Source: a bacterium (GTDB lineage: Bacteria > UBA8248). From it: 64,000 nt of DNA. Positions 4,103 through 63,477 of the stretch are shown here, in pieces. Made by a program: the position numbers and the translations under genes. The notes under the pieces are model-generated. The model saw nothing but the letters and a program-made list of their open reading frames with translations. It had not been told where the DNA came from and made no database searches. Where the stretch lies: positions 3,904,001 through 3,968,000 of the forward strand of contig OZ242260.1 in assembly GCA_965207065.1 (NCBI GenBank). Direction: 5' to 3'. Numbering within the stretch: position 1 is the stretch's first letter; each line of letters begins with the position of its first letter.

Positions 4103-4193
4103 GCAGGTTTCCCCTCCAGGCTATGCCGCGAAACTCAGATTTATCTAAAATATTCAATACCTTACGGCGCATGAGCCGCCGGTAATGTGACCT

Positions 4194-5033
4194 TTATTCG
4201 CGGTGCAAACCCTTGAGTTCGCGAAGCAGTTCTCCTGTATCGGGCGCGCGCATGAGGGCCTCGCCGACGAGGATGGCGTCCACCCCCTCATCCACCAGGG
4301 GAGACACCTCCTCCCATCCGAAAATCCCGCTCTCGGACACCAGGACGAGCGATTTTCGCTGCTCGGGCGTGAGCCGCGAGAACACGCGGGAAGTGTGCCC
4401 CGTATCGACCTCGAAGGTCTTCAAGTTCCGGTTGTTCACGCCGAGTACGCGGGTTCCGGCCGCGAGGGCGCGCCCGAGTTCTTCTTCGGCATACACCTCC
4501 ACGAGCGCGTCCATATCCAGTTCTTCTGCGAGCGCGCGCAAATCCTCCAACTGCGCCGTCTCCAGGATAGCCGCAATCAGCAGTATGGCGTCCGCCCCGC
4601 CCGCACGGGCTTCCAGTATCTGGTATTCGGTGAAGATAAACTCTTTTCTGAGAACGGGCAGACCCACCGCTGCGCGCACCTGTTCCAGATGCGCCATCTC
4701 ACCGAGAAATCTTCTCCGCTCGGTCAGCACCGAAACGGCGGCGGCACCACCTTCCTCATAGGCTTTGGCGATTTCGCCCGGCTCGAAACTCTCGGCTATC
4801 TGCCCCTGGGAGGGTGAGGCCTGTTTCACCTCGGCGATGACGCGCATCAGTCCGCCGTCGGCATCTTCGCCCGCATCGGGCCGCCTGAGGGCGCCCGTGA
4901 AACTCACCGTGGGCGGCGCATCCTTCGCCATGGATTTGAGGTCGATTTCGGAACGCCGTCTCTTGTCCGAGGCGATGTCCTCGCGGACGCCTTCCACGAG
5001 CTTGTCCAGAACCGTATGCGTCGCAATCGTCAA
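4194..5033 (-). CDS. trpC: Indole-3-glycerol phosphate synthase
   Basis: IAEVKQASPSQG, SVLTE, LRKEFI, GVNNRNL, SESGI, LVGEALM. Confidence 0.95.
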   Translation of the reverse strand: MTIATHTVLDKLVEGVREDIASDKRRRSEIDLKSMAKDAPPTVSFTGALRRPDAGEDADGGLMRVIAEVKQASPSQGQIAESFEPGEIAKAYEEGGAAAVSVLTERRRFLGEMAHLEQVRAAVGLPVLRKEFIFTEYQILEARAGGADAILLIAAILETAQLEDLRALAEELDMDALVEVYAEEELGRALAAGTRVLGVNNRNLKTFEVDTGHTSRVFSRLTPEQRKSLVLVSESGIFGWEEVSPLVDEGVDAILVGEALMRAPDTGELLRELKGLHRE

Positions 5034-5081
5034 GACATCATGCTCCCAGCAGGAATCGACAATCTATGGGCCAGCGAAGCC

Positions 5082-5429
5082 GGGTTGTTGAAACAGTCAC
5101 AAATTGCCCGAAATTCACCCCCCACCGGCACGATTTCGAGCTTCGCCCTTGAACGGCATTGCCAACCGACGAGAGAGAAGAGATCCACTCCCCCCTTGGG
5201 GGGGAGTAGCAGAAGCCGAGCGACTTGTGCGAAGGCTGATGCGTGGGGGGTAAAACGTGTTTGATCGCCATTCCGAATTCTACCCCCCACCGGTTCGCTT
5301 GCGGGCATGCGCCCTTACCTCACCGACATTCCCTCCCTTTTCGGTCGGCAATGACCCTCAAGGGGGGAGTGAACTTCAAAAGCGTGCGAGAAACTCAAAA
5401 TTGCTTTCCAGAACTTTTCCAACAACCCC
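5082..5429. mobile_element. MITE-like element inserted between trpD and trpC
   Basis: gggttgttgaaa ... ttttccaacaacccc ends; internal cactcccccttgggggggagt...tgtgcgaaggc module shared with 36300-36365. Confidence 0.6.
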
Positions 5430-5447
5430 AAGCCACACCCGCCTCGC

Positions 5448-6458
5448 TCAGGAGTTGGACACTTCCACGAGGCGCGCGAGGACGCTCGCCGCTTCGCCCG
5501 AATCTATCGCCGCGGCCGCCTGCGCGACGCCCTCTCTCAAATCCCCCGCCCTGTCCGCGGCGATGAGCGCGGCGGCGGCGTTCAGGAGCACGATGTCGCG
5601 CCTGGGGCCTTTCTCACCGCCAAGGATGGCGCGCGTGATCTCCGCGTTCTCCGCAGGCTCGCCACCCTTCACGGCGTCCGCTTCGGCGCGCTCGAGGCCC
5701 GCGTCCTCGGGCGTTACGTCATACGTCCTGATACCGCTCCCGTCCCACTCCGAGACGCGCGAGGAGCCGGTGAGCGTCATCTCGTCCATCCCGTCGGACC
5801 CGTGCACCACGAGCGCCTTCTGACAGCCCACCTGGCGCAGCACGTCCGCCACGAGCTCGGTGAGTTCTGCCGCGTATACGCCCACCAACTGGCTCTGGGC
5901 GCGCGCGGGATTCGTGAGCGGCCCCATGACGTTGAAGATGCTGCGCATGGCGATCTCGCGCCTGGGGCCGATGGCGTGCTTCATCGCGCCGTGAAGCATG
6001 GGCGCGAACAGGAAGCCCACGCCCGCCTCGTCGATGCACTCGCCCACCTTCTCGGGTGTGGCCTCGATGTTCACCCCCAGCGCCTTCAATACGTCGGCGG
6101 CGCCCGATTTGCTCGACACCGCACGGTTGCCGTGTTTCGCCACGGGCTGGCCCGCCGCCGCCACGACGAGAGCCGCGCTCGTGCTGATGTTGAAGGTGTG
6201 GGCGCCGTCGCCGCCCGTGCCCACCACGTCGACCACGAAGGGGTGTTTCGTCTTCACCCAGGTCGCCCTGGCGCGCATGGAGCGGACGCTGCCCGCGATC
6301 TCCTCGGGCGTCTCTCCCGCCATGCGGAGCGCCACCAGGTAGGCGCCGATCTGGGCCTGGGTGGCCTCGCCCGTCATGATGAGGTCCATCACCTTCTCCG
6401 CCTCATCCGCACTCAGGTGACGGCCTTCCACGAGCTTTCCGATGGCTTCCTGAATCAT
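5448..6458 (-). CDS. trpD: Anthranilate phosphoribosyltransferase
   Basis: DVVGTGGDG, FNIST, KHGNRAVSSKSGAAD, GPLTNPA, DGMDE. Confidence 0.97.
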   Translation of the reverse strand: MIQEAIGKLVEGRHLSADEAEKVMDLIMTGEATQAQIGAYLVALRMAGETPEEIAGSVRSMRARATWVKTKHPFVVDVVGTGGDGAHTFNISTSAALVVAAAGQPVAKHGNRAVSSKSGAADVLKALGVNIEATPEKVGECIDEAGVGFLFAPMLHGAMKHAIGPRREIAMRSIFNVMGPLTNPARAQSQLVGVYAAELTELVADVLRQVGCQKALVVHGSDGMDEMTLTGSSRVSEWDGSGIRTYDVTPEDAGLERAEADAVKGGEPAENAEITRAILGGEKGPRRDIVLLNAAAALIAADRAGDLREGVAQAAAAIDSGEAASVLARLVEVSNS

Positions 6459-57082: not shown

Positions 57083-58255
57083 TTATTCCGGTTTTCCCGC
57101 CACCTCGGTGAGCTTGCGCCGCCCCGCCCCCGATGGCCTGAGAAGCCTGCCTCCCAGGACCACGTGCGTCGCCTCGAGCATCCGGCTCCCCTTGCGCCGC
57201 GCGCCCATGGAATCCTCGAAAACGAACCGGCCTTCCTTCATCCGGAACACGGCGACGTCGCCTCTCGCGCCTTTTTTGAGCGTCCCCACCTTGCCTTTGA
57301 GGCCAATCCACTCGGCGGCCGTCTGCGTGCTGAGGCGGACCACTTCCGCGAGAGGAAAGCCCAGGGCCAGAAACTTGCTCATGAGGCTGGGAAAATCATA
57401 CACCGGCCCGTGGATGCAGTGCGTATGGAGGTCGGTGCTCAGGTTGCCCGGCATCAGGCCCTGCGCCATGGCGCGCTCCATAATCTCGAAGCTGAAGCTC
57501 GAGCGCCCATGAGCGACGTCGAGCAGCACGCCCGAATCCCTCGCCTCCCACACCGCGCGGCGCACCCTGCCTCTCCCGTCGAGAATGTTCTCCCGCCTGC
57601 CGTGGAACGCGTGCGTGAGCACGTCGCCCGGGCGGAGGCGCTTCAGGATGCTCGGCAAAGAAGAAGGCGTATCGCCCACGTGCACCATCAGGGGAACCTT
57701 CAGGAATTCCGAGGCCTCGAGCGCCGCATCCAGGGGCTTCGAGCCGCTGCGCTCCACCACATTGTCACTCAGACGCACCTTCATGCCGATCAAGTATTTC
57801 CGGTGCGTCTCGTAGCACGCCACCGCCCTGTCCACGCGCAGCGCACGCATGTCGATGTTCTCGCCGAGGCCGTCTATCAGTAGCCCGCCTTCGGAGATGT
57901 TGAGATACGCGCGCACCGTCGGGCGGGCCTTCTCCAGGAACCATTCCTGAAAACTCGGGTACGTTTGCGCGCCTGCGCTGCCCGTATCGACTGCCGTCGT
58001 CACGCCGCGCGATAGCATCGTCGCATCCAGATTCACGCCGTAGTGCGTGAAACCCTCATAGAAATGGCAGTGGAGGTCGACCAGGCCGGGGGTGACGATT
58101 TTCCCCCGCGCGTTCAATGTCTGCCTGCCCTCCGGCTCGATGTGGGGCGCCACCCGCCTCACGCGGCCGCGCGCGATCTCGACGTCCATCGTCCCTTCGA
58201 GTTCCTGGGAAGGGTCGATCACGTATCCGCCGCGTATGACGATGTCCATGCGCAT
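57083..58255 (-). CDS. Amidohydrolase/deacetylase-family metallohydrolase (dihydroorotase-like)
   Basis: PGLVDLHCH, VDTGSAG, GMKVRLS, LMVHVG, THAFHG, DVAHGRSSF, STDLH. Confidence 0.85.
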   Translation of the reverse strand: MRMDIVIRGGYVIDPSQELEGTMDVEIARGRVRRVAPHIEPEGRQTLNARGKIVTPGLVDLHCHFYEGFTHYGVNLDATMLSRGVTTAVDTGSAGAQTYPSFQEWFLEKARPTVRAYLNISEGGLLIDGLGENIDMRALRVDRAVACYETHRKYLIGMKVRLSDNVVERSGSKPLDAALEASEFLKVPLMVHVGDTPSSLPSILKRLRPGDVLTHAFHGRRENILDGRGRVRRAVWEARDSGVLLDVAHGRSSFSFEIMERAMAQGLMPGNLSTDLHTHCIHGPVYDFPSLMSKFLALGFPLAEVVRLSTQTAAEWIGLKGKVGTLKKGARGDVAVFRMKEGRFVFEDSMGARRKGSRMLEATHVVLGGRLLRPSGAGRRKLTEVAGKPE

Positions 58256-58348: not shown

Positions 58349-58378
58349 TTGACATGCAATCGCCGCGAGGTGGATTAT
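58349..58378 (+). promoter_or_regulatory. Putative sigma70 promoter of the ACAD-selenoprotein operon
   Basis: TTGACA-N18-GATTAT, 55 nt upstream of the ATG at 58433. Confidence 0.45.
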
Positions 58379-58432
58379 GAAAGCATAAACCCTAGCGCTT
58401 TCTCAAAATAATCAAACCGCTGGAGCCATGAA

Positions 58433-59605
58433 ATGAGCCTGCAAACGGAATCCACGCTGCAATTCGATTTAGACGAAACGCAAAAGATGCTCCGCCAGAC
58501 GGTGCGCGAACTCTCGGAGCGCTACATCGCCCCGCGCGCCGCCGACATCGACGAGAACGAGGAGTACCCCGAAGACATCTTCCAGCTCCAGAAAGAACAC
58601 GGCCTGCTCGGCATTTTCTTCCCCGAGGAATACGGGGGCGGCGGCATGGGCTTTCTGGGCGGGTGCGTCGCCATCGAGGAGATAGCGCGCGTCTGCTCGA
58701 ACTCCCCGCTCTTCATCGTGCTCAACATGCTCTCGAGCCGCGTCATCGACCTGAGCGGCACGCAGGAGCAGAAAGACCACTACATGACGGGCCTCGCGAA
58801 AGGCGAACTCAGAGGCTCCTACGCCCTCACCGAACCCCACGCGGGTTCTGACGCGGGCAACATCCGCACGCGCGCCGTCAAGGAGGGTGACGAGTGGGTC
58901 ATCAACGGCACCAAGTGCTTCTGCACCGGGCCCGACAAGGCGGACTTCATCACCGTCGCCGCCAAGACCGACCCCCACGCCGGCACGCGCGGCATCACCT
59001 ACTACATCGTGCCCACCGACGCGCCGGGCTTCAGCATCGCCAAGCACGAGCGCAAGATGGGCATGCGCGGCATCTCGACCTGCATGCTCAACCTCGACAA
59101 CGTGGCCGTTCCGCTCGAGAACCAGGTGGGCGAGCTGAACCAGGGCTTCAAGACCGCGATGGTCGGCTTCAACCAGATGCGGCCCGCCATCGGCTCGCGC
59201 GCCGTGGGCCTGGCCCAGGGCTGTCTCGACTACGCGGCCAACTACGCCAAGGAGCGTGAGGCGTTCGGAAAGCCCATCGCCCAGCACCAGGCCGTGCAGT
59301 TCATGCTCGCCGACATGTTCATGGACATCGAGGCGGCGCGATTGCTCGTCTACCGCGCGGCCGCCATGGTGGATGCGGGCCAGATCGGCAAGGAGAACGC
59401 CAGGTACTTCTCGACGGCCAAGACATACGCGGCCGACATGGCCATGAAGTGCGCGATAGACGGCATCCAGGTCTTGGGTGGAGCGGGCTACATGAAGGAC
59501 CACCCGCTCGAACGCTTCATGCGCGACGCCAAGCAGATCCAGATCGTCGAGGGAACGAGCCAGATACAGCGGATGATCATCGCCCGGAACCTGCTCGGCC
59601 TCTAG
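58433..59605 (+). CDS. Acyl-CoA dehydrogenase family protein
   Basis: ALTEPHAGSDA, INGTKCF, KMGMRG, REAFGKPI, IVEGTSQIQR. Confidence 0.94.
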   Translation: MSLQTESTLQFDLDETQKMLRQTVRELSERYIAPRAADIDENEEYPEDIFQLQKEHGLLGIFFPEEYGGGGMGFLGGCVAIEEIARVCSNSPLFIVLNMLSSRVIDLSGTQEQKDHYMTGLAKGELRGSYALTEPHAGSDAGNIRTRAVKEGDEWVINGTKCFCTGPDKADFITVAAKTDPHAGTRGITYYIVPTDAPGFSIAKHERKMGMRGISTCMLNLDNVAVPLENQVGELNQGFKTAMVGFNQMRPAIGSRAVGLAQGCLDYAANYAKEREAFGKPIAQHQAVQFMLADMFMDIEAARLLVYRAAAMVDAGQIGKENARYFSTAKTYAADMAMKCAIDGIQVLGGAGYMKDHPLERFMRDAKQIQIVEGTSQIQRMIIARNLLGL

Positions 59606-59617
59606 GAGCATGCCGAG

Positions 59618-60784
59618 GTGACGGGAAGTCCGGGTTCCGGGGGCGCGTTCGAACTCAATCCGGCCCAGCGGATGCTGGCCGAGACGGTGTATGAACTGAG
59701 CCGCCGCCACGTCGCGCCGCGCGCCGCCGAGATCGACGAGAACGACGAATACCCCGAAGACGTATTTCAGCTCTTGAAATCCCACGATCTGCTCGGTCTC
59801 TACGTGCCGGAAGCCTACGGCGGGTCGGGTCTCGGTATTCTCGAAACCTGCATCGCCATCGAGCAGATGGCGCGCTTCTGCTCGAACTCCCCCCTCTTCT
59901 TCTCCGTCCACCTCCTCGCCACGCGGCCCGTCGCCATCGGGGGAAGCGAGGCGCAAAAGCGAACCTATCTCGCCGGCGTCGCGCGGGGTGAGTTGCGGCC
60001 CGCCTTCGCGCTCACTGAGCCGCACGCGGGTACTGACGCCGCGAACATTTCTACGCGCGCCGTACGCGACGGGGATTCATGGGTGATCAACGGCCAGAAG
60101 TGCTTCTGCACGGGTTCGAGCGTGGCCGATTTCATCACCGTGGCGGCCAAGACCGAACCCGGCAAGGGGGCGAAGGGCATCTCTTTCTTCATCGTACCCA
60201 GGGGCGAATTCCGCGTGGGGCGCCATGAGCGGAAGATGGGGATGCGGGGAATCCCGACCTGCGAGGTGTTTCTGGAAAACACGCGCGTGCCCCTGGAGAA
60301 CATGATTGGCGAGCCAGGCCTTGGCTTCAAGACCGCCATGCTCGGCTTCAACCAGGCGCGGCCCGGCATCGGCGCGCGGGGCGTGGGTCTGGCGCAGGGG
60401 TGCCTCGACTATGCGGCCAATTACGCCAGGGAGCGCGAGGCATTCGGCAAGCCCATCGCGCAGCACCAAGCGGTGCAGTTCATGCTCGCCGACATGTTCA
60501 TGGAAACCGAAGCGGCACGCATGCTCGTTTACCGCGCCGCCTCGATGGTGGATAATGGGCGCTACCAAAAAGAAGACGTGCATTTCATCTGCGCCGCGAA
60601 GTGCTACGCCACCGACGCCGCCATGAAGGCCGCCGTGGACGGCGTTCAGGTGCTCGGCGGCGCGGGCTACATGAAGGACCATCCGCTCGAGCGGTTCATG
60701 AGAGACGCGAAGCAACTGCAGATCATCGAGGGGACCAACCAGATTCAGCGCATGGTCATCGCCCAGAATTTATTGAGTTTATAG
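59618..60784 (+). CDS. Acyl-CoA dehydrogenase family protein (close paralog of 58433-59605)
   Basis: ALTEPHAGTDA, INGQKCF, REAFGKPIAQHQAVQFMLADM, IIEGTNQIQR. Confidence 0.94.
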   Translation: MTGSPGSGGAFELNPAQRMLAETVYELSRRHVAPRAAEIDENDEYPEDVFQLLKSHDLLGLYVPEAYGGSGLGILETCIAIEQMARFCSNSPLFFSVHLLATRPVAIGGSEAQKRTYLAGVARGELRPAFALTEPHAGTDAANISTRAVRDGDSWVINGQKCFCTGSSVADFITVAAKTEPGKGAKGISFFIVPRGEFRVGRHERKMGMRGIPTCEVFLENTRVPLENMIGEPGLGFKTAMLGFNQARPGIGARGVGLAQGCLDYAANYAREREAFGKPIAQHQAVQFMLADMFMETEAARMLVYRAASMVDNGRYQKEDVHFICAAKCYATDAAMKAAVDGVQVLGGAGYMKDHPLERFMRDAKQLQIIEGTNQIQRMVIAQNLLSL

Positions 60785-60806
60785 TTCCCCATTACGGAGA
60801 TTCGAG

Positions 60807-61415
60807 ATGAGCCAGATGATTGAAATCTTGAAACCCACCTCTTTCGTCCGTGCGGGCGACCACCCGCTGGCGGAACGGCCCGAAGATATCGGGGGTCTCA
60901 GAATCGGCTTCTTCCACAACAACAAGCCGAACGCCGACGTCCTCTTGGAGCGGATCGAAGAACTTCTCGCGCAGGAGGACGAGACCCTGCGCATCGTCCG
61001 CTGGGGAAAGCCGAACCCCACCCTGCCGGAGGACCGCCTGGAGGAATTCCTCGAACAGGTCGACCTGGCCGTCTGCGCCGTGGGCGACTGAGGGAGTTGC
61101 ACGTCATGGAGTATCCATGACTCGGTGGAGATGGAAAAAGCGGGCGTTCCGACGGCCACGTTCTGCTCGAGTGAATTCTCGGCCCTGGGCGCGAACGAGA
61201 GAACGGCGCTGGGGATGCCCGGCCTGCCGATAGTCGTCGTTGCGCATCCGGTGGGGGGAATCGCACCGGAACAGGCGCGCGCGCTGGGAGACGGTGCGGT
61301 GGAGGAGGTGCGGCGCATCCTCACGAGCGATGCCGAATCGCTCAGGCGAGAGTACCGGGAGCGCGAATACGTGCCGCCCCGCAAAACCGTGCGCCACAAG
61401 GCGCTCTTCGCATAG
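60807..61415 (+). CDS. UGSC-family selenoprotein (in-frame UGA 61089-61091 read as Sec), 202 aa
   Basis: Track ORFs 60807-61091 and 61125-61415 are in the same frame; readthrough gives AVGD-U-GSCTSWSIHDSVEMEKAGVP; SECIS-like hairpin follows. Confidence 0.88.
61103..61121 (+). promoter_or_regulatory. Bacterial SECIS-like hairpin
   Basis: GUCAUGGA-GUA-UCCAUGAC, perfect 8-bp stem with a G-containing loop, starting after an 11-nt spacer from the UGA. Confidence 0.75.
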
Positions 61416-61428
61416 GCGGGCGCACGAA

Positions 61429-62508
61429 ATGAACGACCACTCTCAGGAAGATATTGCGTTCGAGAGCGAGCGCGTGAAGGTTCGCGACACGCCCGAGGCG
61501 ATGGCGCGCCTGCTCGAAGCCCGGGGCTGGGGCGACGGCCTCCCCGTCGTTCCCCCGACGCCCGAGCGGGTCGCCAGAATGGTCGAAGGCTCAGGCCTCG
61601 CTCCCGATGTGGAAATCGGCCTCCTGGCGCCCCGCCAGGGAGTCATCACGGTCGAGGCCCTCGCCGTGAACGCCGTGATGGCCGGCTGTCATCCTGCGTA
61701 CATGCCCGTTCTGGTCGCTGCAGTCCGGGCGGTGCTGACGCCCGAGTTCTCGCTCCACGCCATTCAGGCGACGACCCACCCGGTGGCGCCCCTCATCATC
61801 GTGAACGGCCCTATCGTCGAGGAAATCGGCCTGAATGCCGAGTATGGATGCTTCGCCCCCGGCAACCGGGCGAACGCGACGATTGGCCGCGCGATGCGCC
61901 TGACGCTCCTGAACGTGGGCGGCGCGAGCCCCGGCGTTCTGGACCGCGCCACGCAGGGATCGCCCGCGAAATACGCGTTCTGTATCGCCGAGAACGAGGC
62001 GGCCTCCCCCTGGGAGCCATTGCACGTGGAGCGCGGCTTTGCGCCCGAGGAGAGCGCGGTGACGCTCGTGGGCTGCGAGGGACCCCACAATATCAACGAT
62101 CACGTGAGCCACACGGCGGAGGGAATTCTCGCCACCGCCGCCGACACGATGTCCATCATGGGGAGCAACAACTTCTATCTGCGCGGAGAACCCGTTCTCG
62201 CCCTCGGCCCCGAGCACGCGGCCACCATCGCGGGGGACGGCCTGACGAAAGCGGATGTGAAGGGGAGAATTTTCGAGCTCGCCCGCAAGCCCGTGCGCCA
62301 GCTGAAGCGCGGCGCCATGTGGGGGATGCAGACCTGGGGCGAGGAAATAGCCGAACACGAAGACGACGATGATTTCGAGATTCCCCTGCTCGACGGTCCG
62401 GAGGATTTACTCCTCATCGTCACGGGCGGCGCCGGCAAGCACTCGTGCTACATGCCCACCTTCGGCCCCACGCGCTCGGTGACGCGGAAGATCGACACCG
62501 GCAAATAA
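61429..62508 (+). CDS. Conserved uncharacterised protein of the type found next to or fused with UGSC proteins
   Basis: GWGDGLPVVPPTPERV, AVNAVMAGC, PLIIVNGP, RANATIGRA, AENE..SPWEPLHVERGF; start reassigned to ATG 61429. Confidence 0.8.
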   Translation: MNDHSQEDIAFESERVKVRDTPEAMARLLEARGWGDGLPVVPPTPERVARMVEGSGLAPDVEIGLLAPRQGVITVEALAVNAVMAGCHPAYMPVLVAAVRAVLTPEFSLHAIQATTHPVAPLIIVNGPIVEEIGLNAEYGCFAPGNRANATIGRAMRLTLLNVGGASPGVLDRATQGSPAKYAFCIAENEAASPWEPLHVERGFAPEESAVTLVGCEGPHNINDHVSHTAEGILATAADTMSIMGSNNFYLRGEPVLALGPEHAATIAGDGLTKADVKGRIFELARKPVRQLKRGAMWGMQTWGEEIAEHEDDDDFEIPLLDGPEDLLLIVTGGAGKHSCYMPTFGPTRSVTRKIDTGK

Positions 62509-62886: not shown

Positions 62887-63477
62887 TTAGGCAGGCGACG
62901 GCAAGAGCGCCTCGGCCTGCCCCAAGACGGATTCCAGAAAACTCTCATCAGGGGAGACGCGCGACAGCACCCTGAGGCCCAGGAAGAGACCAAGCAAAGA
63001 TTTTGCAGTCAGCTCCGGATCGACTTCCGTGGAAATCTCACCATTGGCCTGGCCTCGCCTGATGGAAGCGTGAAGAAACTCCGTCATTCCAGTGAACGCG
63101 CCGGTCAATATCGAAGCCACCTCCAGATCGTGCGCGCCAAGCTCCAATGCGATGTTTACCTCGAGGCAGCCGTCGCTCGAACCGTTTTCCATCACTTCCG
63201 AAGCGGCGGCCTCGAACACGGCCAGCACCGCCTGTCGTGGCGATGAATGTTTTTCGAGTTCCTTAATCGGAGCCTCGCGGTAGAGTTGATCGTAACGGTG
63301 AAGCGCCCGCATGAACATCTCGCGCTTGTCGCCGAAGGCGTGGTACAAGCTTCCTCTGAAAAGGCCTGTTGCGTTCTCGATATCGCGAATCGACGTTGCC
63401 GAATAGCCGTGACGCCAGAACTGCCTCATGATTTTCGTTAAAACTTCGTCCATCTCGTACTTTGGCATTTTTCCCAC
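62887..63477 (-). CDS. TetR/AcrR-family transcriptional regulator
   Basis: FWRHGYSATSIRDIENATGLFRGSLYHAFGDK, GCLEVN. Confidence 0.92.
   Translation of the reverse strand: MGKMPKYEMDEVLTKIMRQFWRHGYSATSIRDIENATGLFRGSLYHAFGDKREMFMRALHRYDQLYREAPIKELEKHSSPRQAVLAVFEAAASEVMENGSSDGCLEVNIALELGAHDLEVASILTGAFTGMTEFLHASIRRGQANGEISTEVDPELTAKSLLGLFLGLRVLSRVSPDESFLESVLGQAEALLPSPA

Follow-up and report, generated by a model that had tools for sequence, protein, structure and literature searches.

A UGSC-family selenoprotein and its partner as a candidate two-subunit selenoenzyme, linked to acyl-CoA dehydrogenases in one bacterial clade

What does a selenoprotein of the UGSC family do beside two genes for acyl-CoA dehydrogenases (ACADs)? 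This question is raised by the stretch of bacterial DNA analysed here, whose entire 64,000 nucleotides we call the window. Since 2005-2008, UGSC proteins have ranked with the most numerous of the selenoproteins predicted from aquatic metagenomes, and the available part of a 2026 review still describes their function as uncharacterised. A sequence-only reading of the window had proposed that the selenoprotein and its neighbour form a two-subunit redox or sulfur-transfer enzyme acting with the ACADs. The reading that we favour, with about an even chance of being right, is that UGSC (through Sec95) and this partner would constitute a two-subunit selenoenzyme, most probably a thioredoxin-fed reductase, which in this lineage is joined to an ACAD and a divergent amidohydrolase.

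The locus comprises four co-oriented genes on the + strand. They encode ACAD1 (58433..59605; 390 aa, of the generic short/medium-chain type by Pfam and NCBIfam), ACAD2 (59618..60784; 388 aa with a GTG start, assigned by Pfam and 67% identical to ACAD1), the UGSC-family selenoprotein (60807..61415; 202 aa with Sec95 and a resolving-type Cys98, assigned by Pfam, NCBIfam and alignment) and the partner protein (61429..62508; 359 aa, of the 'Unknown_1' family, bearing GWGDGLPVVPPT and lacking a Pfam or NCBIfam model). The ORF coordinates confirm the intergenic gaps of 12, 22 and 13 nt reported earlier, and by its gene arrangement this unit is an operon-like cluster. The single promoter-like site that had been placed ahead of it does exist (TTGACA-18-GATTAT, 58349..58378, + strand, 10/12 positions matching), but such sites are no more frequent than chance (2 in the region vs 1.0 +/- 1.0 in shuffles). 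The two flanking genes described previously, both on the - strand, are likewise confirmed by Pfam and NCBIfam: a divergent metallohydrolase of the amidohydrolase/deacetylase family (57083..58255; PF01979/PF07969; NF006689 at 395 bits, cut-off 371), whose position beside the unit is conserved within the genus and in one further genus, and a convergent TetR-family regulator (62887..63477; domain search and synteny), which is retained at most same-genus loci. RNA-labelled contigs from a sponge metatranscriptome (88-97% alike, with identical records from two runs) cover parts of ACAD1, UGSC and the partner, with DNA carry-over possible, and none of them bridges a gene junction with 31 letters on each side.

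The last two genes of the module are paired well beyond this locus. In counts anchored on the partner alignment, UGSC adjoins the partner at 69 of 78 genome loci and 68 of 80 metagenome loci. The window's own genome holds 8 UGSC and 15 partner paralogs, with a partner present at all eight UGSC loci; one of these copies is a 536-aa UGSC/partner fusion, and further fusions occur in both domain orders. Because the two proteins are neighbours at most loci and are fused in both orders, we consider them very probably to be one enzyme, and the earlier description of the GWxDGLP protein as the usual neighbour or fusion partner of UGSC is borne out. A UGSC/Unknown_1 fusion was already printed in 2008 (Zhang and Gladyshev, PMC2398784), and the window's partner belongs to the family shown in the Unknown_1 alignment of that paper (Fig. 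S1A; AVNAVMAGCxPEYMPV...ATTH...VNGP).

Searches of Pfam and NCBIfam found no family for the partner at E <= 0.01. Its homologs share the invariant residues DGLPxxxPT, G86-C87-x-P89, R147, N149, R154, R157 and W195, and its predicted model places Cys87 at the start of a helix. Neither UGSC nor the partner nor a PrdB-like protein had a match when solved structures were searched by sequence. Foldseek found no match to the partner fold at E <= 1e-3, the best VIA match (Z 5.5) covered the C-terminal third only, and a protein atlas search added nothing beyond clusters of the same family.

An indication of chemistry comes from what the partner is fused to. A PF07992 flavoprotein domain is found in 35 of the 67 partner homologs of at least 630 aa, and in the two thioredoxin-reductase (TrxR)-type fusions that we inspected the partner is N-terminal and the TrxR portion C-terminal with a CAVC motif. 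These fusions point to a reductase, and the redox role suggested from the sequence alone fits them. TrxR-like genes also adjoin the module directly at 4/78 loci (L041, L048, L060, L077), and in one case the partner is fused to AhpC/TSA. Genes for Trx or TrxR are absent from the window operon and its flanks, and also from the seven further UGSC loci of the genome.

How the ACADs relate to this pair is a separate matter. Both contain the three domains PF02771/PF02770/PF00441 in order (E 1e-26 to 1e-49) and resemble ordinary dehydrogenases, being closest to generic short/medium-chain enzymes. Their best NCBIfam match is the acryloyl-CoA reductase AcrC, at 397 and 374 bits against a cut-off of 640, and all 24 NCBIfam matches fall under their cut-offs, such that no named substrate class is assigned. 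We dropped an acrylate lead, given that this AcrC-like match and an AcuR-like match of the TetR protein (42 vs 247 bits) are far below cut-off. ACAD1 is the copy retained at all orthologous loci, whereas ACAD2 is a genus-level tandem duplicate. The sequence-only reading had anticipated a conserved ACAD linkage, and within the window's lineage this stands: on the partner tree all seven rows of the window's clade are ACAD-linked (100% support), an ACAD is kept at 17 of 18 same-genus loci, and orthologs at 70-74% partner identity retain a single ACAD. The ACAD recurs beside the pair in at least two genera and on two contigs from metagenomes. Family-wide it does not stand, with an ACAD within 3 kb at only 6/78 genome loci (72/78 without) and at 7/80 metagenome loci, four of these being orthologous to the window's locus. 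The ACADs beside other partner clades are 26-39% identical to those of the window, and the ACAD label requires at least four independent gains on the partner tree. The ACAD link is thus confined to the clade of the window and does not extend to the UGSC family as a whole. The sister clade of eight rows has no CoA enzyme, and the link may therefore reflect a chance arrangement of genes that descent has preserved in this lineage.

If the view is widened from ACADs to CoA enzymes in general, a recurrent association is seen. Such enzymes lie within 3 kb at 19/78 genome loci, in several clades, and in the window's own genome an ACAD, enoyl-CoA hydratase (ECH) or family III CoA-transferase lies within 3 kb at 4/8 UGSC loci vs 7.2% of random points. 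One partner homolog, moreover, carries a fused AMP-binding domain. The sequence-only reading is on the whole supported in part. We set aside a molybdopterin-hydroxylase cluster at 8 loci, since its count was inflated by antisense ORFs over UGSC and the partner.

These contexts bear on the most serious competing explanation, in which UGSC and the partner would serve as a module for thiol/selenol redox chemistry or repair in general, metabolically unrelated to the ACADs, their adjacency being inherited gene order. The neighbours of the module are very diverse (among the 78 loci, SDR 16, CoA-transferase 14, ABC 12, luciferase-like 11, TctC 9 and amidase 8), the immediate ones vary from a GMC oxidoreductase to SelB, and most clades are without CoA enzymes, including a partner clade of 55 rows with none. 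Partner fusions to peroxiredoxin-type (AhpC/TSA, one found) and AhpD-like (CMD) domains also count in favour of such a module. However, the presence of 8-15 paralogs per genome in separate catabolic clusters better fits substrate-specific enzymes. Furthermore, the retention of an ACAD down to 70% partner identity, across the genera and metagenome contigs noted above and with gaps of 12-22 nt, argues against simple inheritance of gene order, as do the enrichment of CoA enzymes in the window's own genome and the repeated gains of an ACAD on the partner tree. We therefore rate a general redox or repair function as rather unlikely, although it is the strongest competitor to a substrate-specific reductase.

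The predicted structure of UGSC opens another possibility. Its model is a beta-alpha-beta, flavodoxin/Rossmann-like fold (pLDDT 92.9), and azoreductases, flavodoxins and periplasmic-binding or SDR-type domains, but no thioredoxin, are among the Foldseek and VIA matches listed. In contrast, the 2008 paper, in its available portion, called the UGSC fold 'likely Trx-like' and gave no function (PMC2398784). In the model a helix has Sec at its N-terminus, as in a catalytic nucleophile, and the pair could accordingly be a redox-neutral Sec/Cys enzyme, for instance a hydro-lyase, an isomerase or a racemase, whose substrate would be an enoyl or 2-substituted acid, either free or as the CoA ester. LarA-type racemase genes adjoin the module at three loci, one UGSC paralog of the genome has a UGSS motif without the resolving Cys, and the partner has weak structural matches to hydro-lyases, namely class I fumarate hydratase and its relatives (Foldseek E 4.8e-3, VIA Z 4.8). 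Yet those matches lie under the level that separates relatives from chance, and in half of its long homologs the partner is joined to a TrxR-type flavoprotein with its CxxC intact, which would be unneeded without redox chemistry. A redox-neutral role seems to us distinctly improbable.

That UGSC is a genuine selenoprotein, with real decoding of its lone in-frame TGA (61089-61091, + strand; motif VGD-U-GSC-TSW), is evident from several lines of sequence evidence. The protein matches PF24696 at 163.6 bits (cut-off 25; E 6e-48) over model positions 1-171, spanning the TGA, and NF041046 at 140.4 bits, above the cut-off of 125; the U95 column of the U-G-S-C motif is at least 90% conserved among 52 sequences. 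All eight UGSC copies of the genome contain exactly one TGA, at the same codon, as do 78/78 single-stop UGSC matches in other genomes. A SECIS-like hairpin (GTCATGGA-GTA-TCCATGAC; 61103..61121, + strand) begins 11 nt past the TGA, and its 8 bp form pairs in 87.3% of cells vs 78.3% in shuffles (0/500 shuffles as high), with two-sided changes in 7/8 pairs and slid controls pairing at 19-51%, statistics that are to be read with the caveat that coding constraint acts on the same bases. The Sec machinery of the genome is complete (tRNA-Sec, SelA, SelB, SelD). Cys replaces Sec at the same position at loci L027, L037 and L089, and Ser does so in one fused homolog. Translation table 11 splits the frame into ORFs of 94 and 96 aa, but it is scarcely credible that the TGA is a true stop, with 60807-61091 and 61125-61415 as a pair of small genes or as one disrupted gene, given a family model running across the TGA, its recurrence at one codon, the conserved hairpin with compensatory changes, the complete machinery and the Cys forms. 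The earlier assignment of UGSC to a Sec family is upheld.

A reductase made of UGSC and the partner might operate as follows. The partner would bind an organic-acid substrate through an Arg/Asn pocket suggested by its conserved residues alone. Sec95 would attack this substrate, by analogy with the Sec of GrdB/PrdB, and Cys98 of the UxxC motif, partner Cys87 or both would resolve the intermediate to give a selenenylsulfide, which the thioredoxin system would re-reduce. The UGSS paralog, which lacks the resolving Cys, and the fused homolog with Ser for Sec count against this scheme. In the window's clade, the substrate or product may be an acid that is processed in the form of its CoA thioester and would then be desaturated by the ACAD, and the 8 UGSC and 15 partner paralogs could be versions for different substrates. 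More tentatively, and with a probability that we place well short of even, UGSC and the partner might represent a new class of thioredoxin-driven selenoenzymes. This class would parallel glycine and proline reductase but do without a pyruvoyl group, would reductively break a carbon-heteroatom bond in organic acids and would have diversified into many substrate-specific paralogs, and in the window's branch the linked ACAD would go on to oxidise the acid in the form of its CoA ester.

The hope that the ACAD context would provide a handle on the entire UGSC family is not sustained by the 6/78 loci or by the large clade devoid of CoA enzymes, and the ACAD link should not be generalised to that family. 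What the window adds is a clade in which the UGSC-partner pair is locked to an ACAD, and the search for a substrate is thereby narrowed, in that clade, to acids that are metabolised as CoA esters. More broadly, the partner and the TrxR fusions make UGSC testable as a two-subunit reductase.

Three known systems are useful for comparison. Sets of an ACAD, a family III CoA-transferase and an enoyl-CoA hydratase exist, for example CaiA/CaiB/CaiD of carnitine metabolism, and the same three families are the CoA enzymes that recur near UGSC-partner modules. In contrast, the window carries ACADs only, which score 184 and 156 bits as crotonobetainyl-CoA dehydrogenase (cut-off 540), and no selenoprotein is known in carnitine-type CoA pathways. 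The second system is the TrxR-coupled thiol/selenol reductases (low-Mr TrxR, TIGR01292), which act on a disulfide or selenenylsulfide of a client enzyme. The CxxC-containing TrxR-type fusions of partner homologs and the direct TrxR-like neighbours at the four loci named above resemble these, although the window operon lacks Trx and TrxR and the client would be a two-protein Sec/Cys system.

The third is the selenoproteins GrdB (selenoprotein B of glycine/sarcosine/betaine reductase) and PrdB (of D-proline reductase) with their pyruvoyl subunits GrdE/PrdA, in which, according to the part of the source available, a small UxxC selenoprotein brings its nucleophilic Sec to a substrate held by another subunit (PMC11229817). 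The Sec region of UGSC weakly resembles theirs. TIGR01917 matches across it with E 0.004, at 16 bits against a cut-off of 602; PF07355 gives no match to UGSC at E <= 0.01; and hhalign of the UGSC profile with seven PrdB-like selenoproteins sets Sec on Sec over 80 columns (E 6.9e-4, probability only 27%) but finds no match to the genome's Cys-type full-length GRDB protein (probability 0.8%). The same genome has three PrdB-like selenoproteins with UPLC/UGLC motifs. Relative to the available part of the 2008 UGSC description (PMC2398784), this likeness, the ACAD context and the TrxR fusions are additions. UGSC and its partner would share with GrdB/PrdB and GrdE/PrdA a two-subunit design built on a UxxC selenoprotein. 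They differ in that UGSC scores under the family cut-offs, that the partner is unlike GrdE/PrdA (Pfam and NCBIfam, E <= 0.01) and has no evident pyruvoyl-forming site, Cys87 lying at a helix start in its model, and that the UGSC hosts are not Stickland fermenters but carry the module in clusters of catabolic genes, among them genes for CoA enzymes, transporters and monooxygenases.

The four-gene unit spans positions 58433-62508 on the + strand, and its open reading frames bear out the co-oriented arrangement described in the sequence-only reading, with intergenic gaps of 12, 22 and 13 nt. The first two frames (58433-59605 and 59618-60784, both +) encode the acyl-CoA dehydrogenases ACAD1 and ACAD2, which carry three ACAD domains each and are 67% identical. 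The third (60807-61415, +) gives a product of 202 residues if the TGA codon at 61089-61091 is read as selenocysteine (VGD-U-GSC-TSW), and it matches the UGSC family (PF24696, NF041046) along the entire model with scores exceeding both the Pfam and NCBIfam curated cut-offs. The fourth (61429-62508, +) encodes the partner (359 aa, GWGDGLPVVPPT), which matched no Pfam or NCBIfam family. As had been described, the unit lies between an amidohydrolase gene divergent from it and a TetR gene convergent with it. The promoter-like site is also present, but such sites are no commoner here than in shuffled sequence, and no terminator-like site was found on the + strand within the unit. RNA runs X17 and X18 are deposited under different studies but have identical contig records over this stretch, so they may be duplicate entries of a single data set.

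The selenocysteine in this UGSC protein is real, an earlier proposal now upheld by a conserved TGA codon, a hairpin and selenocysteine machinery in the genome. The window's own genome (4.48 Mb, single contig) carries eight UGSC genes, each with one TGA at the identical codon position, and encodes tRNA-Sec, SelA, SelB and SelD. Among UGSC hits from other species, collected at 78 partner-anchored loci, 80 of 84 have an in-frame stop, and TGA is the codon in all 78 single-stop hits; the four hits without a stop are three Cys forms and one Ser form. A hairpin of 8 bp starts 11 nt 3' of the TGA. Across 77 sequences, pairing in this hairpin reaches 87.3% of cells versus 78.3% in shuffles (0/500 as high), a signal that may be partly protein constraint because the same bases encode conserved residues. 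In a control with the hairpin slid out of register, pairing was 19-51% of cells, and two-sided changes occur in seven of the eight pairs (for example, one pair is G-C in 41 sequences vs C-G in 32).

Other observations also touch on selenium use. The SelD gene of the same genome (543537-544499, -) has an in-frame TGA and therefore specifies a selenoprotein form of SelD. Elsewhere, the gene immediately downstream of one UGSC-partner pair codes for SelB, the selenocysteine-specific elongation factor (L045:1948-3867). One UGSC-partner fusion (L041:10127-11845) has Ser at the Sec position and Ser also in place of the resolving Cys (GMSGGSTT); this protein may lack activity or act in some other way. 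Just beyond the window end, ~5.7 kb downstream of the partner, is a gene for YqeB (L019:2238-3221, genome 3968238-3969221), a protein of selenium-dependent molybdenum cofactor biosynthesis (TIGR03309, 367 bits vs a cut-off of 220), followed by MoxR-type AAA and CobT/VWA genes (L019:3221-4102 and 4120-5889). This gene would be a second selenium-use trait near the unit.

The GWxDGLP protein was described as the usual neighbour or fusion partner of UGSC, and our survey across species agrees. UGSC was found at 69/78 genome loci and 68/80 metagenome loci anchored on the partner, several of the partner loci without UGSC being contigs that end at the partner, and fusions exist in both orders (UGSC-partner in L038, L039, L040, L041 and L055; partner-UGSC in L040). 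The loci include one from a strain recorded as Vineibacter terrae. The partner family is very large (at least 8000 matches at E <= 1e-5), and every named protein among the matches listed is called 'hypothetical'. The window's own genome has 15 partner copies, with a copy within ~1.5 kb of each of its UGSC genes, and a true UGSC-partner fusion at one locus (536 residues). The pairing is already in print, but, in the accessible parts of the 2008 GOS paper (PMC2398784), only as a 'UGSC/Unknown_1' domain fusion without function; its supplement 1 shows an alignment that is clearly of the partner family, in which the sole conserved Cys is Cys87 here. No functional study of UGSC was found in the literature covered, which excludes subscription journals.

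Some loci have more elaborate layouts. At L010 (genome 1403847-1418468), a fused UGSC-partner gene (motif UGGC) precedes another partner gene, a PF12831 FAD oxidoreductase and a sugar-type ABC transporter, and a 772-aa YcaO protein is encoded upstream. At L011 (genome 1424095-1443479) there are four tandem partner genes and, on the opposite strand, a xanthine-dehydrogenase-type molybdopterin subunit, after which come UGSC, two genes for enoyl-CoA hydratases and one for an ACAD; on the upstream side are a tryptophan-halogenase-like gene and genes for a cupin and a C39-peptidase ABC exporter. L073 repeats this type of layout with three partners, a Mo-enzyme and UGSC.

The proposed ACAD link holds in the window's own lineage, but not family-wide. 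An ACAD adjoins the pair in 17 of the 18 same-genus loci fetched, the 18th being a 3.3-kb contig that ends short of the ACAD place, and both ACADs are present in 15 of the 17. Only one ACAD, 77-81% identical to ACAD1, is retained in another genus of the family (74% partner identity) and on two metagenome contigs (70-72%), so the ancestral state is one ACAD plus the pair. In a FastTree phylogeny of 199 partner copies, restricted to HSPs of at least 270 aa and omitting the same-genus loci L102-L119, the window's clade of seven rows has full support and an ACAD within 3 kb in 7/7; its sister clade has a CoA enzyme within 3 kb in 0/8 rows.

Family-wide, an ACAD lies near the module in 6/78 genome loci within 3 kb and 7/78 within 10 kb, and in 7/80 metagenome loci, four of these being orthologs of the window. 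Outside the window's lineage, such ACADs are 26-39% identical to those of the window, and the ACAD label requires seven changes on the partner tree, at least four of them forced by supported branches. Taken together, CoA-thioester enzymes recur beside the module, though in a minority of loci: an ACAD, hydratase, family III CoA-transferase or MaoC-type gene occurs within 300 bp at 9/78 loci and within 3 kb at 19/78, and these or AMP-binding genes occur within 10 kb at 28/78. Such enzymes are found in nine of the 18 rows of another supported clade, which includes an own-genome paralog followed by a CoA-transferase; a 55-row clade, mostly of metagenome rows, has none. In the window's own genome, which alone supplies the random-point background, a CoA-thioester gene lies within 3 kb of 4/8 UGSC loci versus 7.2% of random points (binomial tail ~0.0015 by our own arithmetic), although the loci are few and paralogous. 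Neighbour counts use crude calls of frames of at least 90 aa by length and GC3 and blastp clusters each named from one representative, and take in related, non-independent genomes. Other common neighbours are short-chain dehydrogenases, ABC and TctC transport proteins, luciferase-like monooxygenases and amidases. The picture is of a versatile enzyme module placed in a wide range of catabolic clusters and, in the window's branch, tied to an ACAD.

Fusions of the partner provide the strongest functional clue. Among 67 partner homologs of at least 630 residues, 35 contain thioredoxin reductase (TrxR)-type flavoprotein domains and 16 contain UGSC, and single proteins carry AMP-binding (adenylating; P0164), Amidohydro_2 (P0156), Cys/Met-PLP (P0167) or AhpD-like CMD (P0171) domains; four have FN3 only, eight have no further domain, and none has an ACAD, hydratase or CoA-transferase domain. 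The FN3 fusions include several clostridial-type homologs. In the two TrxR fusions examined, the partner is N-terminal and is followed by TrxR with CAVC. TrxR-like genes also adjoin the module in 4/78 loci, and an AhpC/TSA domain is fused to one partner.

The UGSC protein is modelled (pLDDT 92.9) as a beta-alpha-beta sandwich, with Sec95 where helix 96-111 starts, following strand 87-93. Structure searches match it to flavodoxin-like and Rossmann-like proteins from many families, with no thioredoxin among the matches listed. The partner model (pLDDT 92.7) has no clear relative among its structure-search matches, and the invariant residues of the family (DGLPxxxPT, Gly86-Cys87-x-Pro89, Arg147, Asn149, Arg154, Arg157 and Trp195) look like a putative active site for an anionic substrate.

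The GRDB family is represented in the window's own genome by three PrdB-like selenoproteins of 281-312 aa (L099:1351-2286, +; L100:1405-2307, +; L101:1150-1992, -), with one in-frame TGA each and V-U-PLC and A-U-GLC motifs, and a full-length GRDB-family protein without a stop (L098:1492-2541); all four are conserved throughout the genus.

The Sec region of UGSC resembles that of GrdB and PrdB, the selenoprotein subunits of glycine and D-proline reductase. UGSC matches NCBIfam TIGR01917 at E 0.004, and its profile aligns Sec-on-Sec over 80 columns with seven PrdB-like selenoproteins of the genus (E 6.9e-4, probability only 27%), a sequence likeness that may be taken as a lead, not as membership. 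Together, the TrxR fusions and neighbours and the AhpC/TSA fusion point to UGSC-partner as a reductase recharged by a dithiol flavoprotein. The catalytic cycle proposed for it is patterned on that of proline reductase, as described in PMC11229817.
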